Shown here piece after piece: positions 1,017-62,685 of a DNA stretch of 64,000 nt. Position 1 is the stretch's first letter, and each line of letters begins with the position of its first letter. This DNA comes from Candidatus Dormiibacterota bacterium. Lineage in GTDB: Bacteria; Chloroflexota; Dormibacteria; CF-121. Below the pieces are notes generated by a model. The model was given only the letters and a program-made list of their open reading frames with translations. It searched no databases and was not told the origin of the DNA. The position numbers were made by a program, and so were the translations under genes. The stretch is from contig DATEHI010000052.1 of assembly GCA_035279665.1 (NCBI GenBank), positions 7,939-71,938 of the forward strand, read 5' to 3'.

Positions 1017-1107
1017 AGCCAGTGGTTTCCCTCCCCCTCTAGGGAGCGCAAGGCAGGGATTTCCGAATTGACAAACGAACGCATGTTCGCTAAACTAACA
1101 CAGAATT

Positions 1108-2523
1108 GTGGTAGATGCGGAACCGACCCTGCCGACGAGCGTCCACGTGGCGGACCTGTTGAGCGCCGTCGATCGGTTCCGCCGGCGCCCGAAAACCGAC
1201 CGGCAGCCCCAGGTGCTTGCCGCAGAACTGAAAGGGATCCGCCACGCGTCGGATCTCCTCGAGCTGGAGTTCTCGCAAACCGCGGCGGCCTTCAGCAAGA
1301 CGGAGGAATACGACGAGCAGGGGTCTGTGAGCCCCATCGATTGGATCCGTCATCAATGCCGGATGTCCAGTGGGGCGGTATGGAACAGTTTGGCGGTCGG
1401 CGAGCACCTCGATGACCTTCCGCGCAGCATCGAGGCGGTCGAGAGTGCGGAGATCGGTTACGCCCACCTGGCGCTCATGGCCCGAACCGCCGAATCCGTA
1501 CAGGGATCATCCACCGCCGCACCTTTCGAGGAGGATGGGTTACTCGACAAGGCCCGCGAGTACAGCGTCGGCCGGCTCTGGTACTTCTGTCATCACATGC
1601 GCCACGCCACAGACCCGGAGGAATTTACCGCCGAGCAGAGCCGCGCGACCGAGGCGCGCAGGTTAAAGATGAGCACCTACGAAGACGGCTCCCTGGCTAT
1701 CGAGGGCTGGATCGACTCGGTCGGTGGCGCCGTGGTTCGCAGCGCGCTCGAGCCGTTGGCTCAGCCGCATGGCGACCACGATGAGCGCGGCCGGGAACAC
1801 CGCAACGCGGACGCCTTCGTCGAGGTCTGCAGTCACGCACAAGACACTGGCGTGCTACCCCAACGTCCTCACCTTCAGGTAACGGCCTCGCTCGACACGC
1901 TCCGGGGACTGGCCGGCTCGCCTGCGGGTGACATGGAGTACTCGCTACCAGTGTCGTCGGCGACCGTACAACGCCTGGCGTGCGACGGCACGATCACCCG
2001 CGTCGTGCTGGCACCGGAGTCCGTCGTGATCGATGTCGGACGGGCGCGTCGCGTGGTCGCCGGGGCCATGCGTCGCGCGCTGAACGCCCGCGATGGTCAT
2101 TGCAAGTGGCCGCGGTGCGATCGGCCGGCGTCGTGGAGCGATGCCCACCACGTCGTCCACTGGACGAATGGCGGCGAGACCGATCTTGCGAACATGATCC
2201 TGTTGTGCCACCGACATCATTGGATGGCGCATGAGGGCGGTTGGCAACTGGTGCGAACGGCGGAGGGTGAGGTGCTGGCCGTGCCGCCTCGCCCACCCGG
2301 GCTGGCGCGCGTGGCAGACGTTGACGATCCCGTTGAGGCTGCTCGCCGGTTCGCGGAACAGTTGCGCATCGCGCGAAGCTTACGAACCGACTGGCCGCCT
2401 GGAAAACGTGCACCAGCCGACGACGCCGCGTGGGCCCGAGTCATGAACACGCACGATGCCGCGGGTCATCAGGCGAACCAGCGGTCGGACCTCGACCCCA
2501 GCCTCCCCGACCCCGCCGCCTGA
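1108..2523 (+). CDS. HNH endonuclease domain protein, DUF222 / REP13E12 repeat-family type
   Basis: C-terminal HNH motif HCKWPRCDRPASWSDAHHVVHWTNGGETDLANMILLCHRHHW. The N-terminal region resembles DUF222 as in mycobacterial 13E12-repeat proteins. GTG start at 1108. Confidence 0.85.
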   Translation: MVDAEPTLPTSVHVADLLSAVDRFRRRPKTDRQPQVLAAELKGIRHASDLLELEFSQTAAAFSKTEEYDEQGSVSPIDWIRHQCRMSSGAVWNSLAVGEHLDDLPRSIEAVESAEIGYAHLALMARTAESVQGSSTAAPFEEDGLLDKAREYSVGRLWYFCHHMRHATDPEEFTAEQSRATEARRLKMSTYEDGSLAIEGWIDSVGGAVVRSALEPLAQPHGDHDERGREHRNADAFVEVCSHAQDTGVLPQRPHLQVTASLDTLRGLAGSPAGDMEYSLPVSSATVQRLACDGTITRVVLAPESVVIDVGRARRVVAGAMRRALNARDGHCKWPRCDRPASWSDAHHVVHWTNGGETDLANMILLCHRHHWMAHEGGWQLVRTAEGEVLAVPPRPPGLARVADVDDPVEAARRFAEQLRIARSLRTDWPPGKRAPADDAAWARVMNTHDAAGHQANQRSDLDPSLPDPAA

Positions 2524-2893: not shown

Positions 2894-7534
<4,641 letters not shown>

Positions 7535-7645: not shown

Positions 7646-8764
7646 TTACCCGAGACGCTCCTTCAGCCAGTCGGCCATCAGCGGCCGGTATTTGTACGCG
7701 ATGTTGTTGCAGACGTGGTTGCCATCCGGGTACATCACGAGCGTCGCGTTCGGCGCCTCGCGTGCAATCCGCTCCGCCTGCGCGGGCGGAAACAAGCCGT
7801 CGCGGGCGCCATGGATCACGAGTAGTGGTTGGGTGACCTTGTCGAGGACGCCCTCGAGGTTTAGCGTGTATGCCTTGCGCTTGGCCTCGGCCTCATCCGC
7901 CGATTTCGTGTAGAAGATGTAGCCGCCTTTGGTCAGTGGGTTGATCGCGTCCCAGCACTCTCCGAGGTTGTACGGCCCGGACAGTCCGACGACGGCAAGC
8001 AGCCGCCTTTCGTGCGCCGCCGCCCTGGGGCCGTAGATCGCACCCATGCTGATCCCCATCAGGCCGATCCGGTTCAAGTCGACGCCCAGGTCATGGCGCC
8101 GCTCGAGATCGTCGACCAGCGGCGTGATCACGGATTCCCAATTGACGCGAATCGGAAAATGCACCGAGTTCTCCGACTGGCCGGGGCCGTCGATAGTCAG
8201 GGTCGCCAGACCGCGCCGGAGGAACTCCTCCTCGATGGCGAACAGCTCCTCCTTCGAGGAGTCGAGTCCCGGTACGATGAGGATGAGCGGTGGCCGGCGC
8301 ACGTCGCGAGGACGACGCAAGTGCCCCGGGATGATGTGGCTCTCGAATGGGATCTCGAGGCGCTCCGCCGGCGGGTCCAGGTGTGGAAGCGTCTTGCCGT
8401 AGACCGAGACCGAACGGTCGCGGAGCTCGCCGTGGAGCGAGAGATCCTCGAACCAGAGGAACTTCCCGAGGTGATAGCACCAGGCCGCCCGCTGGTAGGC
8501 CGCGGTGGCCGACACCATGCGCTCGTGCTGCTCGGCTTCGCGGCCGAGCGCCTCGTGCACCTCACCGACCGCCCGCCAGTTCGGGCCCCAGTCCTTCCAC
8601 TCCGTCGTCTTCCCCACGATCGTGTCGAAGTCGTTGACATCGATGCCGTTGGCCACGAAGCGCGCCCGCCAGTGATGGGCGGCGACCTGGACCCGGTTGC
8701 TCGGTAGATCTCCCTCCCCCCTTGTGGGGGAGGGTCGCGGTGGCGGGGTGGCGTGCACCGTCAT
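7646..8764 (-). CDS. Alpha/beta hydrolase fold protein (dienelactone hydrolase / S9-like)
   Basis: GISMG nucleophile elbow and alpha/beta-hydrolase core. The true start is most likely ATG at 8764..8762, overlapping the upstream gene's TGA (ATGA), not the longer 7646..8986 ORF. The first 25 codons are encoded by a palindromic repeat (PPPRPSPTRGEGD). Confidence 0.75.
   Translation of the reverse strand: MTVHATPPPRPSPTRGEGDLPSNRVQVAAHHWRARFVANGIDVNDFDTIVGKTTEWKDWGPNWRAVGEVHEALGREAEQHERMVSATAAYQRAAWCYHLGKFLWFEDLSLHGELRDRSVSVYGKTLPHLDPPAERLEIPFESHIIPGHLRRPRDVRRPPLILIVPGLDSSKEELFAIEEEFLRRGLATLTIDGPGQSENSVHFPIRVNWESVITPLVDDLERRHDLGVDLNRIGLMGISMGAIYGPRAAAHERRLLAVVGLSGPYNLGECWDAINPLTKGGYIFYTKSADEAEAKRKAYTLNLEGVLDKVTQPLLVIHGARDGLFPPAQAERIAREAPNATLVMYPDGNHVCNNIAYKYRPLMADWLKERLG
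8712..8750. repeat. Short GC-rich palindromic repeat, copy 1 (CCCTCCCCC-cttgt-GGGGGAGGG followed by G-rich tail)
   Basis: Perfect 9-bp inverted arms seen in sequence. A related copy lies at 35067..35098 and a weaker one at 1029..1059. Confidence 0.6.
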
Positions 8765-10368
8765 GTGACTTTCTCCTTCTGATGGATGGCCGCGTGGAGA
8801 CCGGAGCCGAGATCCTGCAGGAGGATGGCGGCGCAGTTCCGGCCCGGTAGACCGGACACCGACCCGCCCGGATGCGTGCACGCGCCCGTCTGATACAGAC
8901 CGTTGACCGGGGTCCGGTATGACGACCAGCCTTCGACCGGGCGGAAGTAGCCGCTCTGGTCCGGTGTGCTGGCCCCACCATGACACGATCCCCGCCAGTT
9001 CGCCGGATTCCGTCGCTCGAGGTCCAGCGGGCTTTCGACGTGTCGCGCCAGCACGATGCGCTCCGACAGATTCGTGGTCAGCGGCGCCAGCCGCTGGAAC
9101 AGGCGCGTCGCCACCTCCTCCTTGATCGCGTCCCAGTGTGGCGGGCCCTCGGCGAGTTCGTACGGGAGGAAGCTGATCAGCTTGAACGTCTGCTTGCCGG
9201 CGGGCGCGCGGGAGGCATCGACCACGGTTGGCGTGATCGCCAGGTAGACGGGGTCATCGAGCTCGACCCGCCCGGCGCGAAACGCGGTCAACATGCGATG
9301 CAGCGAGTCCAGCGATTCGAGCCCGCCCATCGTCACGCTCTCCAACGACCCGACTTCCGTCTGAAAGCGCGGCGCCTCACTCAACGCATAGTGAGCCACG
9401 AACATCGTCACGCTGGGCTTCCAGCGGGCAATTCCAGCGCGGTACTCGGGCGTGAGGTTCGCCTCTCCCACGATGCCGCTCAGATGCGCGATGTGGATCG
9501 TCGAGACCACGGCCTTCGAGGCGGAATAGCTCGAACCGTCGGCCGTGACGACGCCAGTCGCCCGTCCGCCTTCGACGACGATCCGGGTCACCGGCTTCGA
9601 TGTCAGGATGGCGCCGCCGTGCTCCCCAATGATCCGCGCGAGCGCGATGGGCAGGCGGTTCGAGCCACCCTCGGGCAGGATCCAGCTGAAGCGCTGCCGT
9701 CCCGCCACCAGCGAAAGAGCCAGCAGCCCTGTCTCCGGCTCGTCCAGTGGATGCAGCGTCATGAAGGCGATCCAGGCGAAGAAGGCGCGCACGTGCTCCT
9801 CGGCGAAACGTGCGGTGATGACATCGAGCGCGGTCGCCCGGCGGATGTCCAGCCCGCGCGCGCCGAGCGGCCCTGCCTGCGTCCGCGCCGCGACCTCAGC
9901 AGGTGGTCGGGGCGAGTTTTCCCGCTCGGCGTTCACGATCGGCGAGAGCGACTGCCAATCGGCGAGCAGCTCGCGATAGGCGTCGGCATCCGCACGCGAA
10001 AAGCGAGCCAGCTCCGCACACGTGCGATCGAGGTCGCGCCACATCGTAATGCTGCGGCCGTCGCGGAACGGCATGGTGAACACTGGATCGGGCGACAGGT
10101 AACGCAGCCCGTAGCGGTCGAGTTGCAATTCGTTGTTGCGCATCAACGGGTTGCTCTGGATCAGGTTATGCGCGGTCGCACACGAATCATGGACAAAGCC
10201 CGGCAGCGTGAGTTCCTCGGAGATTGTGTCGCCGCCGATCTGCGCGGCGGCCTCGAGAACCAGTACCTTGAAACCGGCGCGGGCGGCGTAGGCGGCGGTC
10301 AGCAGGCTGTTGTGGCCGGCGCCGGCGACAATGATGTCCCACTCGCCACCGCGGGCGGATACGCTCAA
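8761..10368 (-). CDS. FAD-dependent oxidoreductase (phytoene desaturase/CrtI-like amine oxidase family)
   Basis: N-terminal Rossmann motif DIIVAGAGHNSLLTAAYAARAGFKVLVLEA. The length (535 aa) is typical of CrtI-family flavoproteins. Confidence 0.8.
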   Translation of the reverse strand: MSVSARGGEWDIIVAGAGHNSLLTAAYAARAGFKVLVLEAAAQIGGDTISEELTLPGFVHDSCATAHNLIQSNPLMRNNELQLDRYGLRYLSPDPVFTMPFRDGRSITMWRDLDRTCAELARFSRADADAYRELLADWQSLSPIVNAERENSPRPPAEVAARTQAGPLGARGLDIRRATALDVITARFAEEHVRAFFAWIAFMTLHPLDEPETGLLALSLVAGRQRFSWILPEGGSNRLPIALARIIGEHGGAILTSKPVTRIVVEGGRATGVVTADGSSYSASKAVVSTIHIAHLSGIVGEANLTPEYRAGIARWKPSVTMFVAHYALSEAPRFQTEVGSLESVTMGGLESLDSLHRMLTAFRAGRVELDDPVYLAITPTVVDASRAPAGKQTFKLISFLPYELAEGPPHWDAIKEEVATRLFQRLAPLTTNLSERIVLARHVESPLDLERRNPANWRGSCHGGASTPDQSGYFRPVEGWSSYRTPVNGLYQTGACTHPGGSVSGLPGRNCAAILLQDLGSGLHAAIHQKEKVT

Positions 10369-17385: not shown

Positions 17386-17499
17386 GCCCGTTAACCTCAG
17401 CCGCGCGGGGTTGCGGAGCGTTGCTTCCGATGCATACCCCTCACCAGCGGTTAACGTTGGACCAGGGCGCTGAGCGCCTGGGTGATGGCAGGGCGGGGC

Positions 17500-18292
17500 G
17501 ACGGGTGGGCGAACGCAACGCGCGCCGGGGGCGGACGATCGTGACCCTGGAGGAGGTTGCTCGGGCAGCGGGCGTTCACTATTCGTGGATCGGATCCTCA
17601 ATCACCTCTTGAGCCGGCGGGTCGACGCCATCATCCTGACCGGTGCGCGAATCCGCGACGCACCCAGACTGCGCCAGATCCGGCGTCAAGGCATCCCGCT
17701 TGTGCTGGTGGTTCAGGATGTTCCCGGGATCCGCTTGCCGGCCGCCATCAATGACGACTTCCTCGGCGGCGTGCTGGCGGCTAAACATCTCCTCTCGCTC
17801 GGGCACCGGCGCGTCGCCCAACTGCGCGGACCGCCGGACCTCAACTCCTGCGTCTTGCGTGCCCGGGGTTTCAGCAAGACGATTGCGGCCGCGGGCGCCG
17901 TGGAAGTCGCCCTTCGGTCCACGGCCCCCACGGGATCACCCGACGAGGGTCGTTTCCTGATGGGGAAGCTCCTCGATCGCAAGGGACCGAGGCCATCCGG
18001 GATCTTCGCGCATCATGACCTGATGGCCTTCGGCGCGCTCACCGCGGCGGAGGAGCGAGGCTTGCTGGCTCCGAAGGACCTGTCGATGATCGGCTATCAC
18101 GATCTGCCGCACGATGAGCGCATCGTGCCGCCGCTCACCTCCATCCGACAACAGCGCGAGAAAATCGGCCGGACCGCCGCACAGTTTCTCGTAGAAATGC
18201 TCAGGCCGCCGGGCCGGGCGCCGGCCCCTCGACGGCTCGCCCCCGAGCTGGTGGTGCGCCAATCGACCGGTCCGCCTCCAGCCATTCGTTAA
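17500..18292 (+). pseudogene. Truncated/frameshifted LacI-family regulator paralog (HTH disrupted, about 85 codons deleted)
   Basis: An HTH remnant RTIVTLEEVARAAGVH is in one frame (17190..17612 ORF). It then switches frame near 17580 into a LacI ligand-binding domain starting at the position equivalent to ...RRVDGVIL... of the intact paralog at 15167..16222. No intact DNA-binding domain remains. Confidence 0.5.
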
Positions 18293-32865: not shown

Positions 32866-33875
32866 TGGCCAAGGTCTACCACGACGACGACGCCGACATG
32901 GCGGCGCTGGCGGGCCAGCGAGTCGCGGTCATCGGCTACGGCAGCCAGGGCCACGCCCATGCCTTGAACCTGCAGGACAGTGGCGTCGATGTCGTGGTCG
33001 GCCTCTACAAGGGCAGTAAGTCCTGGGAGGCGGCGGAAAAGGAAGACCTGCGGGTCGAGACGGTCGAGAAGGCCGTCGAGCTGGGCAACCTGGTGATGAT
33101 GCTCGTGCCCGATCAGACGCAGAAGCGACTCTACGATGAAGTGGTCAAGCCGAACTTAAAGCCGGGCAGCGCGCTGATGTTCGCGCACGGCTTCAACATC
33201 CACTTCAGCCAGATCCTGCCGGCGGCTGATATCGACGTCACCATGGTCGCGCCCAAAGGGCCCGGCCACATCGTGCGCCGGCTCTTCAAAGAGCGGGTCG
33301 GCGTACCGGCGCTCTTTGCCGTCCACCAGGACACGACCGGCAAGGCGCGCGCCCGCACGCTCGCCTACGCCCGCGGGATCGGCTCGACCATGGCGGGCGT
33401 GCTGGAGACGACGTTCAAAGAGGAGACCGAGACCGACCTCTTCGGTGAGCAGGCGGTCCTCTGTGGTGGACTCACCTCGCTCGTCAAGACCGGCTTCGAC
33501 ACGCTGGTAGAAGCCGGCTACCAGCCGGAGCTCGCCTATTTCGAGTGCCTGCACGAGATGAAGCTGATCGTCGACCTGATGTACCAGGGCGGCATGAGCT
33601 ACATGCGCTACAGCATCAGCGACACCGCCGAGTTCGGCGACTACGTCAGCGGCCCCCGGATCATCAGCCCCGCGGTCCGCGAGGAGATGCGCCAGATCCT
33701 CCGCGAGATCCAGGACGGCACCTTCGCCCGCACCTGGATCCTGGAAAACCAGGCGGGCCGGCCCGCCTTCAACGCCTCCCGGCAGCGCGCCAAGGGCGAG
33801 CTGATCGAGAAGGTCGGCTCGGAGCTGCGCGCCATGATGCCCTGGCTGAAAGCCGACAAGAAGGCCAGCAACTGA
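32865..33875 (+). CDS. ilvC: Ketol-acid reductoisomerase (class I, short form)
   Basis: [22 protein letters not shown] motif and conserved KARI core throughout. Confidence 0.95.
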
Positions 33876-35107
33876 TGGAGGCCCGAGTACCGACACCGAC
33901 GGGCGACCGCGTGTTCATCTTCGATACCACCCTGCGCGACGGCGAGCAATCGCCCGGCGCGTCGCTGACGCCCGATCAGAAGCTCGCGATCGCCTGGCAA
34001 CTCGCTCGCCTGGGCGTCGACGTGATCGAGGCCGGCTTCCCCCTCTCCTCCCCCGGCGATTTTGAGGCGGTGCAACGGATCGCCCGGCAGATTCGAGGCC
34101 CGATGATCACCGCGCTGGCGCGTGCGGCCCGTCCTGACATCGATGCCGTGTGGCAGGCCGTCCAGGATGCCGAGAGAAAGCAGATCCACATGGTGCTCTC
34201 CGTGTCGGACATCCATATCGAGCGGAAGCTTCGCTCCAACCGGCGCGACGTGCTCCGCCGCGGCGTCGAGGCCGTTGCCTATGCGCGCTCGCTGTGCGAC
34301 GACGTCGAGTACTCACCGGAGGATGCGGGCCGCGCCGATCTCGCGTACCTCTTCGAAACGCTCGAGGCGGTGATCGACGCCGGCGCCACGGTCGTCAACA
34401 TTCCCGATACGACCGGTTACACGCTCCCCAACGAGTTCGGGGCGCTGATCGCATCGATCTGCGAGAACGTCCGCAACATCGACCGGGCCTTGATCAGCGT
34501 GCATTGCCACAACGATCTCGGCCTCTCGACCGCGAACAGTATCGCCGCCGTCCTGAATGGCGCTCGCCGGGTCGAGTGCACGATCAACGGCATCGGCGAG
34601 CGGGCCGGCAACGCCTCGCTCGAAGAAGTCGTGATGATCCTCCGCACCCGCGAGAAGTCACTCGGGCTGCGAACCGGGATCGACACCACGCGCCTGGCCG
34701 AGGTCAGCGCGCTGGTCTCGCGACACACCGGCATTCCGGTGCAGCCCAACAAGGCGGTGGTCGGCGGCAACGCTTTTGCGCACGCCTCCGGCATCCACCA
34801 GGACGGGGTCCTCAAGGACAAGCTGAATTACGAAATCATGCGGCCCGAAGAGGTCGGGATGGGAGAAAGCCGGATCGTGCTCTCGCCCCGCTCGGGACGG
34901 CACGCGTTCCAGTTCCGCCTGGGGGAGCTCGGGTATCACTTGTCGGAGGCGGACTTCGGAAGGGCCTGGGAGCTCTTCCTGGAGCTCGCCGACCGCAAGA
35001 AAGACATCCTCGATCGGGACCTGGAGGATATCGTGCGCCGCACACAGTCGCTGGTATCCTCGATTCCTCCCCCTCCGGGGGAGGGCAGGGTGGGGGTGAT
35101 CGCCTGA
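33875..35107 (+). CDS. 2-isopropylmalate synthase / (R)-citramalate synthase family, short form (about 410 aa, no C-terminal LeuA regulatory domain)
   Basis: [15 protein letters not shown] and [21 protein letters not shown] (DRE-TIM metallolyase). The gene ends after the catalytic and subdomain II regions. The C-terminal tail [13 protein letters not shown] is encoded by a palindromic repeat. ATG overlaps the ilvC stop. Confidence 0.85.
35067..35098. repeat. Short GC-rich palindromic repeat, copy 2 (CCCTCC-ggg-GGAGGG with G-rich tail)
   Basis: Seen directly. It is related to 8712..8750 and lies in-frame at the leuA 3' end immediately before the TGATG junction with ilvE. Confidence 0.55.
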
Positions 35108-36096
35108 TGGCCGTCGAGCCCCTGCACCCGTCGGAGACCGCGCCACCCCCGCCCACGAAGGCGATCTATGGCGGCTTTGCCTACTTCAAGGGCGCGATCG
35201 TGCCCTTCGGCGAGGCGAACGTCAGCGTCGGCACCCATGCCCTGAACTACGGCACGGGATGCTTCGAGGGGATTCGCGGGTACTGGAACGCCGAGCAGCA
35301 CGAGATCTATCTCCTGAAATTGGCCGAACATTACGAGCGGTTCCTCAAGTCGACGGCGCTGCTCAAGATCAAGCTCGAGGAGAATGTCGACCAGCTGTGC
35401 GAGCTGACGCGCGAGATCGTCCGCCGTGACGGCTTCCATACGGACGTTTATGTCCGGCCGATTGCCTTCAAGTCCTCCGCCATGATCAAGGTCGATCTTC
35501 ACTCGTCCGAGGATGCGGTCGCGATCTTCGCCATGCCGATGGGGGCCTACGCACGGATCGATGGGTTGCGAGTCACGATCTCCTCCTGGCGGCGGGTCAG
35601 CGACAACAGCATCCCGGCTCGGGCGAAGATCACCGGCGCCTACATCAACACCGCGCTGGCCACCGAAGATGCCAACGCCGCCGGTTACGACGATTGCCTG
35701 ATGCTCACGGAGGACGGTCACATCGCCGAGGGGGCCGCCGCCAACTTCTTCATGGTCCAGGGCAGAACCCTGATCACGCCCCCCGTCACCGACGACATCC
35801 TGGTTGGCATCACCCGGGCCGCGGTGATGGGGCTGGCCCTTGACCTCGACCTCGACGTCGTCGAGCGAAGCATCGACCGGACCGAGGTCTACCAGGCCGA
35901 TGAGGCCTTCCTCTGCGGCACCGGTGTCCAGGTGGCGCCGATCGTCGAGGTCGATGGGCGCGCGGTTGGCAGCGGCCGGCCCGGCACGATCACCATGGGA
36001 CTTCAGGAGGCGTATTTCCGCGCGGTGCGGGGCCAGGACCCGCGCTACCGGCAATGGTGCACCCCCGTTTATGGGGGGATGCCCCGAATTAGGTAG
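35107..36096 (+). CDS. ilvE: Branched-chain amino acid aminotransferase (class IV PLP enzyme)
   Basis: Class IV aminotransferase motifs (FEGIRGY, ITPPVTDDILVGITR, EAFLCGT). Confidence 0.9.
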   Translation: MAVEPLHPSETAPPPPTKAIYGGFAYFKGAIVPFGEANVSVGTHALNYGTGCFEGIRGYWNAEQHEIYLLKLAEHYERFLKSTALLKIKLEENVDQLCELTREIVRRDGFHTDVYVRPIAFKSSAMIKVDLHSSEDAVAIFAMPMGAYARIDGLRVTISSWRRVSDNSIPARAKITGAYINTALATEDANAAGYDDCLMLTEDGHIAEGAAANFFMVQGRTLITPPVTDDILVGITRAAVMGLALDLDLDVVERSIDRTEVYQADEAFLCGTGVQVAPIVEVDGRAVGSGRPGTITMGLQEAYFRAVRGQDPRYRQWCTPVYGGMPRIR

Positions 36097-36152: not shown

Positions 36153-36258
36153 CGGTTATCAAGAGTGGCGGAGGGACCGGCCCAGAGATGCCTGCCAACC
36201 TACCGGAATACCGGCAAGGTGGAAAGTCCGTCAGACGAGAGTCTGAAAGATGATGCAG
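36153..36258 (+). ncRNA. SAM-I riboswitch (S-box leader) aptamer
   Basis: UUAUCAAGAG-UGGCGGAGGGAC-CGGCCC-AGAGAUGCC-UGCCAACC...GGUGGAAAGUCC...GUCAGACGAGAGUCUGA-AAGAUGA aligns to the S-box consensus nearly position for position (for example B. subtilis yitJ: CUUAUCAAGAGAGGUGGAGGGACUGGCCCGAUGAAACCCGGCAACC...GGUGCCAAUUCC...AAAGAUGAG). Confidence 0.8.
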
Positions 36259-36271
36259 TCACGGACGAGAC

Positions 36272-36298
36272 GGCCCCTCCCCGCAGGGGCTTTTTTTA
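36272..36298 (+). terminator. Intrinsic terminator (riboswitch expression platform): GGCCCCUCCCCGCAGGGGC followed by UUUUUUU
   Basis: GC stem with 7-U tract seen directly, 66 nt upstream of the thrC-like start. Confidence 0.75.
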
Positions 36299-36363
36299 TG
36301 GTGAGGCCGCGAGAATGAGCGGCCCCGGCGTGGAAAGGCCGCGAGAAGATCAGGAGGAAATCG

Positions 36364-37608
36364 GTGAAGCAGTTGCGATGTCGGGAGTGCGGACGATTGC
36401 GGGACTTCGAGCCCGCCTACGTCTGCGAGCACTGTTTCGGACCGCTCGAGGTGGCGTACGACCTCGACGCCGTCAGGGAGCGGGTCAGCCACGACTCGAT
36501 CGCGAAAGGACCGAACACCATCTGGCGCTATCGAGAGCTGTTGCCCGCCCCGGACAGCGAGCCCATCGACCTGGGGACGGGCTTCACGCCGTTGGTGCAC
36601 GCCCCCAACCTCGGGAAGGTCCTGGGCCTCGATCATCTCTACCTGAAGAACGACACGGTGAACCCGACCGGCTCGTTCAAGGATCGCAACGTCGCGGTCG
36701 CCACCAACTTCGCGCTCTCCTACGGCTTCGACACGCTCTCCTGCTCCTCCACCGGTAACCTCGCCGGCTCGGTCGCCGCCTACGCGGCGCGCGCGGGAAT
36801 GCGCGCGCTCGTCTTCATTCCCGCCGATCTGGAGCCGGGCAAAGTCGGCGCGGCGAGCGCCTATGGCGCCACCGTGGTCGAGGTCAACGGCACCTACGAC
36901 GACGTCAACCGGCTGTGCGTCGAGCTCGCCGACCTATACGGCTGGGCGATCGTCAACGTCAACCTCCGGCCGTTCTATTCCGAAGGGAGCAAGACGCTGG
37001 CGTTCGAGGTGGTGGAACAGCTCGGCTGGAGGGCGCCCGATCATATCGTCGTTCCCGTCGCCGCAGGGTCCCTGCTCGCCAAGACCGCCAAGGCGTTCCA
37101 GGAACTCTTCGGCGTCGGCCTCGTCGACCGGGTCTCCACGCGGATCCACGCCGCGCAGGCGGAAGGCTGCGCCCCCGTGAGCACGGCCATCAAGGAAGGC
37201 CGCGACCAGGTCACGCCGGTGCGGCCGAATAGCATCGCGAAGTCACTGGCCATCGGCAACCCCGCCGACGGCCGCTACGCGGCACGGGCGGTGCGCGCCT
37301 CGGGAGGGTGGGGTACCGCCTGCCGCGAGGACGCGGTCCAGAAAGCGATGGCACTGCTGGCCGAGACCGAGGGCGTCCTGAGCGAGCCCGCCGGTGGCGT
37401 CGTGGTCGCCGGGCTCGAGGAACTCATCGGGAGCGGGCGCATCCGGCGGGAGGAAACCGTCGTGATCTGCATCACCGGCAACGGCCTGAAGACGACCGAG
37501 CTCTTCGACGTCCGCGATGGGCTCCGGCTGCACCTGGCGAAGCCCCGCGCGTCAGAGTTCGAGAAGGCGCTGGCTGCTGCGGAAAAAGCCCCAGCCGCGG
37601 TCGCATGA
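36364..37608 (+). CDS. Threonine-synthase-family PLP enzyme with N-terminal Cys4 zinc ribbon (ThrC paralog; MetM-like candidate)
   Basis: CRECGRLRDFEPAYVCEHC zinc ribbon, PLP lysine motif PTGSFKDRN and fold-type II core. GTG start. A second canonical thrC exists at 45670..46710. Confidence 0.85.
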   Translation: MKQLRCRECGRLRDFEPAYVCEHCFGPLEVAYDLDAVRERVSHDSIAKGPNTIWRYRELLPAPDSEPIDLGTGFTPLVHAPNLGKVLGLDHLYLKNDTVNPTGSFKDRNVAVATNFALSYGFDTLSCSSTGNLAGSVAAYAARAGMRALVFIPADLEPGKVGAASAYGATVVEVNGTYDDVNRLCVELADLYGWAIVNVNLRPFYSEGSKTLAFEVVEQLGWRAPDHIVVPVAAGSLLAKTAKAFQELFGVGLVDRVSTRIHAAQAEGCAPVSTAIKEGRDQVTPVRPNSIAKSLAIGNPADGRYAARAVRASGGWGTACREDAVQKAMALLAETEGVLSEPAGGVVVAGLEELIGSGRIRREETVVICITGNGLKTTELFDVRDGLRLHLAKPRASEFEKALAAAEKAPAAVA

Positions 37609-61183: not shown

Positions 61184-62685
61184 CGCAGAAGCCTTTTCCC
61201 CCGGGCCGCTATCGACTGGTCGTGGTGGGCAGCGGGCCCGGTGGCCTGCAGCTCAGCTATTCGTTGAGCCGGCTGGGCATCGACCACGCGGTCATCTCGG
61301 ACGACCCGGCGCCGGGCGGCATGTTCCGGCGCTGGCCGGTGTTCCAGCGGATGCTGAGCTGGACCAAGCCCTTCACCGGCGTCGAGCACACGTCGCGCGC
61401 CTACGAACGCTACGACTGGAACAGCCTGCTGGCCGACGACGAGCGGGATCGTGCGGTGATGCCCGCCCTGATGGACGGGACATCATACTTTCCGTCGCGG
61501 CCAGAGATGCAGAAAGGCCTGGAGGCATTTGCGGAGCGCACCGGTATCCGCGTGCGCCATGGAACGCGCTGGGAATCGACCCGTCAGGACGGTGAGGAGT
61601 TCGTGCTCACCACCTCCGAGGGCGAGTACCGCGCGCCGGTTGTCGTGTTTGCCGTCGGCGTCGCCCAACCCTACAAACCCCCAACCCCCGGTCTGGAGCA
61701 GGTGCCGCACTACGGTGACTTTCGTCCGGTCGAGACGTACAAGGACCGGCGGGTCTTCATCGTGGGAAAGCAGAATTCGGGTTTCGAAATCGCAACCGGG
61801 TTGCTGCCCTGGGCTCGGCAGCTGGTTCTGGCGTCGCCGAGCCCGACCAAGCTCTCCGTCAACACGCACACCCTGGTCGGCGTCCGCGCCCGCTATGTTC
61901 AGCCCTACGAGGACGGGGCGCTGGCGGGCGGGGTCATCGTTCTCGACACGACCATCGAAGAGGTCATGAAGGATGGCGCCGGCTATCGGGTCCGCACTCG
62001 GAATGCAGCCGGGCGCGAGCTCACCATGGCGGCCGACGATGTCATCGCCGCGACCGGCTTCGTCACGCCCCTTCGCGACCTGCCCGCGCTGGGGGTCGCG
62101 ACCTTCGGCCAGAGCCGGCTTCCGGCGCAGACACCCTTCTGGGAAAGCGCCACCAGGCCAGGCATTTTTTTCGCCGGAACGATCACCCAGGGCGCGGGGG
62201 GCCTGAAGAAGCACGGCATCCCGAGCAACTCCGGCGCCGTTCAGGGCTATCGCTACAACGCCCGCGTCCTTGCCCGGCACCTGGCCGAAACGAAGTTCGG
62301 CGTTCCCGCAACGCGGGAGCACCTGGACCCGGCAAGCATCGTCCCCTACCTCCTCGATCAAGTGAGCAACGGCCCCGAGCTCTGGCACCAGCGTGCCTAC
62401 TTGGCCCGCGCGATCAATCTCGATCGCGACGCCGGGATCTTAAACGACGGCATCGTGCCCCTGCAACACTTCCTCGACTCGGGTGGCGTCGACGCCGTCG
62501 CGGTTACGCTCGAATCGAACGGCCAGGGGAATCCGTACCCGGTCGTCTACGTCCGCAAGGCCGATTCCGTTGCGGAGCACGCGTTGGCACCGGACCCACT
62601 GCTCGATTTCACCGGCCGCGACTACCAGGACGAGTTGCGCAACGCGCTCGAGCCGGTGTTGAGCGAAGCGGCGTCGCCCGCATGA
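61171..62685 (+). CDS. FAD/NAD(P)-binding oxidoreductase (flavin-containing monooxygenase / pyridine nucleotide-disulfide oxidoreductase-like)
   Basis: Two Rossmann motifs (VVVGSGPGG; RVFIVGKQNSGFE). The GTG start at 61171 is uncertain. Confidence 0.7.
   Translation: MAELAQKPFPPGRYRLVVVGSGPGGLQLSYSLSRLGIDHAVISDDPAPGGMFRRWPVFQRMLSWTKPFTGVEHTSRAYERYDWNSLLADDERDRAVMPALMDGTSYFPSRPEMQKGLEAFAERTGIRVRHGTRWESTRQDGEEFVLTTSEGEYRAPVVVFAVGVAQPYKPPTPGLEQVPHYGDFRPVETYKDRRVFIVGKQNSGFEIATGLLPWARQLVLASPSPTKLSVNTHTLVGVRARYVQPYEDGALAGGVIVLDTTIEEVMKDGAGYRVRTRNAAGRELTMAADDVIAATGFVTPLRDLPALGVATFGQSRLPAQTPFWESATRPGIFFAGTITQGAGGLKKHGIPSNSGAVQGYRYNARVLARHLAETKFGVPATREHLDPASIVPYLLDQVSNGPELWHQRAYLARAINLDRDAGILNDGIVPLQHFLDSGGVDAVAVTLESNGQGNPYPVVYVRKADSVAEHALAPDPLLDFTGRDYQDELRNALEPVLSEAASPA

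Follow-up and report, generated by a model that had tools for sequence, protein, structure and literature searches.

How does the same short palindrome come to lie in frame in two unrelated proteins? The question is raised by 64,000 nucleotides (nt) of contig DATEHI010000052.1 from Candidatus Dormiibacterota bacterium (assembly GCA_035279665.1), analysed as a whole and called the window in the following, in which a short G+C-rich palindromic repeat recurs next to two junctions of overlapping genes and is translated there as part of a hydrolase and of a 2-isopropylmalate synthase (LeuA). The copies in the window are solo members of a pan-bacterial dispersed repeat known as BoxC, PIT or TM_ECO and are not lineage-specific; what is new in the window is the stem variant, the phylum and the in-frame coding location. 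We consider it likely that these sites are solo repeats of the BoxC/PIT/TM_ECO type, two of them present as in-frame insertions of 48 nt, and that they derive from a cassette with a gene for a DUF559 nuclease.

Window copies and alleles of their host genes

The element has a three-part plan, in which a C-rich arm, a loop and a complementary G-arm are followed by a short loop and a mirror-image G-arm. On the forward strand copy 1 reads CCCTCCCCC cttgt GGGGGAGGG tcgc GGTGGCGGGG, and copy 2 reads CCTCCCCC tcc GGGGGAGGG ca GGGTGGGGG, followed by TGATCGCC and the TGATG junction of leuA and ilvE. Copy 3 (CCCTCCCCC tct aGGGAGcG ca aGGcaGGGa) is decayed and intergenic (coordinates in Table 1). Copies were located with a rule-based scanner that requires an 8-base-pair (bp) pyrimidine/purine hairpin plus a mirror purine arm; alignment of the copies with MAFFT was poor owing to their variable loop lengths. 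The scanner finds exactly two sites in the window, copies 1 and 2. The mirror arm of copy 1 has one mismatch over 8 nt and is intact as GGTGGGGGG or GGGGTGGGGGG in relatives; that of copy 2 has none. Of 200 dinucleotide-preserving shuffles none contained a match at strict settings, and loose settings gave a mean of 0.14. The nonamer GGGGGAGGG occurs twice in the 64 kb, in copies 1 and 2 only, and the pattern proposed originally, with up to three mismatches, yields 3 matches where 0.16 would be expected. Scanning the window for half-elements, consisting of a G-arm and a mirror arm, did not reveal further decayed copies. Sites at 5439 and 59260 contain CCCTCCCCC but were rejected as ordinary coding sequence lacking a partner arm, and a candidate at 36275 proved to be the terminator of an S-adenosylmethionine (SAM) riboswitch.

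The original prediction had described an arm-N4-arm repeat at 8712 to 8750 and had regarded copy 2 as the last 12 codons of leuA before TGATG. The repeat at the first site is real, but its 9-nt arms enclose a spacer of 5 nt, not 4; copy 2 does lie in the C-terminus of leuA, where it forms codons -20 to -5. Several other statements about the sites were borne out. Copy 1 lies within the first 25 codons of the hydrolase after an ATGA junction, as the antisense strand of codons 6-21; Pro/Gly-rich tails are contributed to unrelated proteins, as seen in the hydrolase and in LeuA; and the weaker copy predicted at 1029 to 1059 is the decayed intergenic copy, which by alignment has orthologous copies in two relatives (L001, at 18537, with the compensated stem CCCTCCGC/GCGGAGGG, and L006).

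Insert-free orthologues exist for both host genes. Among the best 120 homologues of the hydrolase, 117 align only from SNRVQVAAHHW on; they start with M[ST]VE[TA]SNRVQ and most of them have 355 amino acids (aa). Extra N-terminal residues occur only in the window, P0001, P0002 and P0004 (16, 16, 29 and 43, all in frame). On the DNA level the empty allele of L003 reads ATGACAGTGGAAACC/AGCAACCGC, the slash marking the point at which the alleles of the window, L004, L006 and L001 are filled, and the junctions (...GCC, insert, AGC...) are identical in the one empty and the four filled alleles. For LeuA, 87 of 120 homologues have the ancestral length of 386-387 aa, with a short end of the type TQVVA in those displayed; about 16 extra codons ahead of the last three residues are present in some 12 others besides the window. 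In the filled leuA alleles the arms are conserved while the loops (TCC, TCT, GCTTGC) and the peptide differ, as expected of a dispersed repeat and not of low-complexity coding sequence. The leuA region of one relative (L129) has one extra hairpin, and the alleles P0123 and P0127 look like partial deletions. Yet another relative (L127, 1449-1500) carries an independent, oppositely oriented repeat within ilvE codons 3-15 (MIRPLPSPPSKGEGDI), its leuA C-terminus being empty, which means that the same leuA/ilvE junction was hit twice. The lineage thus has three independent coding sites, namely the N-terminus of the hydrolase, the C-terminus of LeuA and the N-terminus of IlvE.

Every allele at these sites preserves the reading frame and the overlapping stop and start codons, and the arms are decaying in several copies within coding sequences, as judged by the scanner. 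The inserts in both host genes are most likely near-neutral. The simplest reading of the in-frame survivors is a selection filter: in a compact genome with overlapping genes and short spacers, selection would spare only in-frame, stop-free insertions in floppy, disordered protein ends. Furthermore, the number of repeats varies at five loci among close relatives. The spacer between the hydrolase gene and gltB has no copy in the window and one, two or three in relatives, and the region after the SAM-riboswitch terminator (about 36300) has none in the window and two in L130 (5250-5330), the second of which adjoins the start of the downstream PALP gene. Tandem and inverted clusters occur in relatives, which have 1-5 copies of the repeat per 5-21 kb, as compared to three copies per 64 kb in the window.

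Some further peculiarities were noted in leuD, leuA and ilvE. An internal loop of leuD in L129 (1990-2110, minus strand) contains GGGGGAGGG ccg GGTTGGGGGG, a repeat-like G-arm and mirror arm that adds 6 aa. The leuD gene of L132 (2990-3160) has two copies in a region with an N-gap and poly-C/poly-G runs; it is probably mis-assembled and was not used as evidence for internal insertion. In the window and in L128, LeuA has an N-terminal extension of eight residues (33875-33915, plus strand), as compared to MDERVY in 386-aa orthologues, which is not repeat-like. IlvE of the window begins with a Pro-rich stretch of 18 residues (AVEPLHPSETAPPPPTKA; 35110-35165, plus strand), and the C-rich DNA that encodes them includes CCACCCCCGCCCAC; this start may be a very old, decayed repeat.

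Identity of the repeat family

The element had originally been taken for a lineage-specific one, a view that has to be given up. The same hairpin with its mirror-image G-tail is found in more than 10 phyla and fits the published BoxC/PIT/TM_ECO pattern, CCCTCNCCC N3-6 GGGNGAGGG N3 GGGNGAGGG (PMC4666352). When one genome per species was scanned for CCCTCCCCC-N3-5-GGGGGAGGG, the hairpin without its tail, at least 120 loci were returned, from Alpha-, Beta-, Gamma- and Deltaproteobacteria, Nitrospirota, Chloroflexota, Planctomycetota, Bacteroidota, Gemmatimonadota, Verrucomicrobiota, Firmicutes and a genome of the candidate phyla radiation (CPR). Among the matches listed, 112 of 135 hairpins have the mirror arm GGG[AT]GGGGG next to the G-arm on its canonical side, compared with 5 on the control sides. 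The loops are conserved as well, (C)TTGN being the commonest type; the CTTGT of copy 1 is of this type and ranks second in frequency.

The three-part architecture is that of BoxC/PIT/TM_ECO (Bachellier and colleagues; Hoyne et al., 2000; Holder et al., 2015), and it recurs arm by arm in the window. The pyrimidine arm CCCTCNCCC is present as CCCTCCCCC (N=C) in copies 1 and 3 and, at 8 of 9 positions, as (T)CCTCCCCC in copy 2. The loops CTTGT and TCC have the appropriate 3-6 nt, and the purine arm GGGNGAGGG is GGGGGAGGG in both cases. After a second loop, which has 2-4 nt in this family, comes a mirror purine arm, which differs from the literal third arm GGGNGAGGG at one position that co-varies with the stem; as a rule, this arm has T or A where the stem has an A.T pair and G where it has a G.C pair. 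In E. coli itself, one actual copy is tgatc-CCCTCTCCC-ttt-GGGAGAGGG-tta-GGGTGAGGG; compared with CCCTCTCCC/GGGAGAGGG/GGGTGAGGG, the window arms CCCTCCCCC/GGGGGAGGG/GGGTGGGGG have one triad changed on all three strands, from T.A*A to C.G*G. In both cases GAT(C/T) stands ahead of the C-arm, and both families occur in either orientation and as inverted pairs; many dispersed copies at loci that are hypervariable among close strains are probably a common trait, too.

Matches to the E. coli family were obtained in 5409 of 5426 complete E. coli genomes, at a median of 18 places and with no annotated feature under the matches shown. The element forms a purine-motif intrastrand triplex in vitro, and 3610 copies have been reported in 262 proteobacterial genomes (PMC4666352). 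It was found to be always intergenic in E. coli K-12, to be hypervariable between strains (29 copies in strain 55989 versus 1 in IHE3034) and to have no mobility gene nearby; spread by structure-induced replication slippage, template switching or repair has been discussed (Holder et al., 2015; PMC4666352). The window differs in its host, a Dormibacterota-like soil lineage, and in that two of its three copies, and more in relatives, lie in frame within genes, whereas the K-12 element is reported as intergenic. Intergenic location is an observation made in K-12 and not part of the definition of the family, and copies 1 and 2 depart from it as translated parts of genes.

Outside this lineage such embedding in host genes is rare: among the matches listed, 20 candidate frames with a minimum length of 750 nt have their end no more than 120 nt from a repeat, and the only one of these with a Pfam domain is a DUF559 gene (L097). 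Stop-to-stop frames over the repeat at the 120 loci listed were dismissed as non-discriminating, because G+C-rich DNA has long spurious frames. We also abandoned the rule that the third arm always faces the gene end, which is obeyed by 8 of 8 sites in Dormibacterota loci and fails pan-bacterially (14 versus 18 of 52 listed). In some repeats loop 2 contains a nested hairpin, GGTCGCCGCGCAGCGGCGACC (L055, 3-451; L093, 703-1124; L097, 6610-6680, Brevundimonas). A literature search with the raw repeat sequences retrieved only eukaryotic primer and promoter matches.

DUF559 genes between inverted repeats

Clustering of open reading frames (ORFs) from the repeat-selected loci revealed an ORF with a DUF559 domain (PF04480) that abuts or overlaps the hairpin in 5 of the 120 loci listed (L007, L023, L029, L055 and L097), which represent four distant groups; in L055 the gene lies between two inverted repeats. 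For the reverse test, an alignment of the DUF559 core without repeat-encoded tails and the catalytic-motif pattern [LVF][IV][VI]E[LVA]DG[GAS][QS]H were used, and 80 metagenome loci (L135-L214) were taken, namely those most similar to seeds that had themselves been found beside repeats. A three-part repeat is present within 200 nt in 62 of these 80 loci, at the 5' side in 49, at the 3' side in 50 and, in inverted orientation, at both sides in 37, compared with a background density of 0.066 per kb beyond 500 nt of DUF559. At strict settings 40 of the 80 loci have a repeat, against a background of 0.027 per kb; at the 5' side its orientation is + in 27 of 31 cases, and at the 3' side it is - in 30 of 31. 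In this cassette geometry the third arms face inward, toward the DUF559 gene. The loci carry different variants of the repeat (CCCTCTCC, CCTCCCCC, CCTTCCCC, CTTCCCCC, CCCCTCCC, TCCTCCCC), and the mirror arm tracks the stem each time.

The repeats are part of the gene's own expression signals. At the 5' side the repeat ends 0-20 nt ahead of the DUF559 start codon and supplies the G-rich stretch before the ATG. At the 3' side the whole repeat is read through by the DUF559 ORF in 27 of 37 cases; in 3 others the ORF stops within loop 2, and in 7 its end lies 1-17 nt ahead of the repeat. The C-terminal tail of the nuclease is therefore usually encoded by the repeat (ending, for example, in PPPQAGEG or PTLPLKGGGS). 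A similar arrangement exists in the window, where GGGGGTGATC, that is the mirror arm of copy 2 plus TGATC, lies 5 nt before the ATG of ilvE and is complementary to the usual 3' tail of 16S rRNA. Judged by the canonical anti-Shine-Dalgarno sequence, the G-rich third arm of copy 2 is plausibly the ribosome-binding site of ilvE, just as in the cassette it would be for DUF559. The same geometry is seen in L161 (2122-2160) and L181 (740-780), in which 2 nt separate the end of a canonically oriented solo from the ATG of a gene that is hydantoinase-like (MYRIGIDVGGTF...).

All eight ORFs checked against Pfam are single-domain DUF559 proteins. They belong to the YcjD-like subfamily, comprising Vsr-fold nucleases of about 110 aa, for which the only solved relative by sequence is 3HRL, an 'endonuclease-like protein'. 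Vsr and a homing endonuclease of a group I intron belong to the same fold group (PMC3424549).

In E. coli the DUF559 gene looked for was ycjD; it is present in 3377 of 5426 genomes, and a combined query for ycjD and the repeat, evaluated for evenly spread rows, gave 11-31 repeat places (median 17) in 37 ycjD-positive chromosomes and 1-14 (median 6) in 21 ycjD-negative ones. This correlation agrees with the published counts for strains 55989 and IHE3034 (PMC4666352) and with the report that ycjD is found where the eef operon is missing (PMC12817139). In K-12 the only TM_ECO element within 20 kb around ycjD lies 168 nt downstream of its stop codon; a degenerate hairpin extends over this stop codon and a 3' fragment of the gene is duplicated downstream (gaatattctccagcaccgtctcc, twice; L134, NC_000913.3, 1351200-1351800).

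Origin of the repeat and comparison with known systems

From cassette geometry, shared start and stop signals and the E. coli correlation we infer that DUF559 mobilises the repeat. The solos of the window would then be non-autonomous derivatives of the DUF559 cassette, in the way in which repetitive extragenic palindromes (REPs) are derivatives of genes for REP-associated tyrosine transposases (RAYTs). DUF559 would probably nick the folded repeat, which repair or recombination would then copy or lose. If this is true, the repeat is built for translation, since it encodes the C-terminal tail of the nuclease, and its solos can for that reason settle in frame in host genes. A wider claim may tentatively be made: the BoxC/PIT repeats, 'orphan' for three decades, could be the terminal inverted repeats and the solos of a minimal selfish cassette of a YcjD-like DUF559 nuclease, which would create, move or maintain them.

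A number of observations weigh against descent from such a cassette. The seeds of the reverse test had been found beside repeats, and the association therefore holds for the YcjD-like subfamily and not for DUF559 as a whole. In a search with the DUF559 hidden Markov model, neither the window nor related contigs totalling about 110 kb yielded such a gene; the copies in the window are solos, so that a link to this lineage is putative. Neither a target-site duplication nor a defined cleavage site could be recognised at the hydrolase and leuA sites, filled or empty; host GGT/GTGGTGG beside the third arm, at two sites only, is suggestive of microhomology or of such a duplication. Filled alleles are patchy in neighbour-joining trees, which indicates several gains and losses, or recombination. 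Pan-bacterial solos do not prefer gene ends with their third arm, no triplex footprint was found in vivo, and an earlier study cited by Holder et al. reported no promoter or terminator activity of these elements (PMC4666352). The difference between ycjD-positive and ycjD-negative chromosomes (Mann-Whitney p=5e-9) ignores phylogeny, and O157:H7 has 13-14 copies without ycjD. DUF559 might be a passenger of the repeats, or a homing-type selfish gene that targets existing triplex-motif repeats, the latter spreading by another route such as structure-induced replication slippage, template switching or repair. The homing gene is a serious alternative, albeit a rather unlikely one in our judgement. 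It is in line with the homing endonuclease in the DUF559 fold group (PMC3424549), with gene-free inverted repeat pairs such as those of L015 and the 'palindromic' pairs of E. coli, with the hypervariability of repeat loci and with the copies retained by O157:H7. On the other hand, DUF559 owes its start signal and its C-terminal codons to the repeats, which indicates a long co-evolution that homing would still accommodate, and ycjD-positive genomes have about threefold more copies.

The remaining explanations leave DUF559 aside. Selection for a cis-regulatory mRNA hairpin, or for a switch between hairpin and G-quadruplex (G4), that tunes coupling or mRNA stability at both junctions is improbable, even though both intact copies lie less than 50 nt from an overlapping stop/start and form RNA hairpins of -20.0 (copy 1) and -16.9 kcal/mol (copy 2). 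In their context they fold no better than shuffles (z = -1.9 and -0.7). The hairpin of copy 1 begins 30 nt past the hydrolase ATG and that of copy 2 ends 22 nt ahead of the ilvE ATG; both are outside the initiation footprint, so that no block of either start codon is expected. The G-arm and mirror arm of copy 2 form a canonical G4 motif (35077-35096), one of only three in the window besides those at 17491-17509 (plus strand) and 61664-61689 (minus strand), and the copy also carries the Shine-Dalgarno-like GGGGGTGATC. A G4-hairpin-duplex switch has indeed been proposed for the E. coli motif (Kaplan et al., 2016; PMC5100583), which is the same repeat, read as four G-tracts after a C-rich segment. 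Copy 1, however, has only three tracts of at least three G, its mRNA is the C-rich strand, making an RNA G4 impossible, and a regulatory role is hypothetical for the E. coli motif and the window copies alike. Most orthologues manage the same junctions without a repeat, the same element is intergenic elsewhere in either orientation, and arms decay within genes.

Still a little less probable is the REP/RAYT-like or miniature inverted-repeat transposable element (MITE) peculiar to this lineage that the original prediction envisaged, with which short, palindromic, multicopy and strain-variable units, tandem and inverted clusters and precise insertion would agree. The conserved GT[AG]G of REPs is absent, no Y1 transposase was present in any locus examined, and it is DUF559 that recurs beside, and is flanked by, the repeat. 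The unit of 40-48 nt, with an insert of 48 nt, is far smaller than the approximately 100-400 bp of MITEs, has no long terminal inverted repeats of its own and left no direct repeat at filled sites; in addition, the same arms, loops and tail extend over more than 10 phyla. Copies 1 and 2 are no intrinsic terminators either, as neither is followed by a T-run. The idea of ordinary Pro/Gly low-complexity coding sequence that is palindromic by chance has practically nothing left to recommend it. Since codons for Pro (CCN) are complementary to those for Gly (GGN), PPP...GEG tracts are by nature self-complementary, and the G+C content of the window is 66%; this reading is refuted by the shuffles, by orthologues lacking the tract, by copies of the same DNA in non-coding spacers and in opposite orientation, and by a mirror arm that is conserved on one side only.

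The odd Pro/Gly tails of two conserved enzymes are accounted for by insertion of a repeat of known type, and the window demonstrates that a BoxC-type repeat can live inside coding sequence with overlapping stop/start junctions intact. This is of consequence for gene calling and for the alignment of protein families in uncultured soil phyla. How BoxC or triplex-motif repeats originate and spread has long been open. The association with DUF559, resting on cassette geometry, shared start/stop signals and the roughly threefold copy number in ycjD-positive E. coli, makes the question testable in E. coli K-12 and offers a candidate function for a widespread domain. It appears to be unreported: no link of DUF559 or ycjD to these repeats is mentioned in the searchable literature, consulted mostly as titles and abstracts.

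Among the neighbouring features, a SAM riboswitch (RF00162, 61.8 bits; 36153-36256, plus strand) was the only Rfam match in the window at gathering threshold, the repeats giving none. It is followed by a terminator (GC hairpin plus T7, about 36270-36300) and by a 414-aa ORF (36364-37608) that is orthologous to the PALP-family gene in L130. Upstream of the DUF222/HNH gene, a promoter-like TTGACA-17-TAAACT (1068-1096, plus strand), conserved in L006, encloses the palindrome CGAACGCATGTTCG (1076-1089), which resembles a Cheo/LexA box and suggests SOS control of this gene.

Table 1. Repeat copies, their parts and adjacent genes in the window
Feature	Position	Strand	Remarks
Copy 3, decayed	1029..1059	+	Intergenic, between a minus-strand ATG (1026) and the promoter of the DUF222/HNH gene
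DUF222/HNH gene	1108-2523		
Alpha/beta hydrolase gene	7646..8764	-	FrsA-like / Peptidase_S9 family; host of copy 1; ATG 8764-8762 overlaps TGA 8763-8761 of the amine-oxidase family gene (ATGA)
Copy 1, 48-nt (16-codon) in-frame insert	8702..8749	-	Hydrolase codons 6-21, peptide TPPPRPSPTRGEGDLP
Copy 1, hairpin	8712..8734	+	C-arm CCCTCCCCC 8712-8720, loop CTTGT 8721-8725, G-arm GGGGGAGGG 8726-8734
Copy 1, degenerate mirror (third) arm	8739..8748	+	GGTGGCGGGG, after loop 2 TCGC
Amine-oxidase family gene	8761..10368	-	Upstream of the hydrolase gene; PF01593 in the L001 orthologue
leuA, short-form 2-isopropylmalate synthase	33875..35107	+	Host of copy 2
Copy 2, 16-codon in-frame insert	35048..35095	+	LeuA C-terminus; boundaries ambiguous by a few nt
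Copy 2, hairpin	35066..35085	+	CCTCCCCC 35066-35073, tcc, GGGGGAGG(G), G-arm 35077-35085
Copy 2, mirror arm plus TGATC	35088..35101	+	GGGTGGGGG 35088-35096
ilvE, class IV aminotransferase	35107..36096	+	ATG overlaps the TGA of leuA (TGATG, 35105-35109)

Among known systems, BoxC/TM_ECO is the family to which the window copies belong, with the difference that no mobility gene had been noticed near TM_ECO by Holder et al. and that a DUF559 gene is found here between repeat pairs. Other short repeats share single traits with the element. The mycobacterial interspersed repetitive units (MIRUs), reportedly described by Supply and colleagues in 1997, are said to be tandem units of 46-101 bp with mini-ORFs between genes; they resemble the present case as short repeats at gene junctions in operons that keep overlapping stop/start signals, and they lack the hairpin-plus-mirror-arm architecture. 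The Rickettsia palindromic elements, attributed to Ogata and colleagues in 2000, reportedly measure 100-150 bp and are restricted to Rickettsia. They, too, are selfish palindromic repeats that lie in frame in protein-coding genes and add a tolerated peptide, but they are unrelated in sequence, and the repeat studied here has about 40-48 nt and sits at protein termini, possibly also in one internal loop of LeuD in relatives. A parallel in organisation is that of REPs, or bacterial interspersed mosaic elements (BIMEs), with RAYTs (REPINs), which are said to have been treated by Nunvar in 2010, Bertels and Rainey in 2011 and Ton-Hoang in 2012. In both systems short palindromic solos far outnumber a small gene flanked by two inverted copies, and clusters and inverted pairs occur. 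If the repeats indeed belong to it, the DUF559 cassette would be a second, non-HUH counterpart of REP/RAYT: its flanked gene encodes a PD-(D/E)XK nuclease of the Vsr fold and not a Y1 HUH transposase, its repeat has a third, mirror arm in place of GTAG, and this repeat lies within the gene's own coding and start signals.

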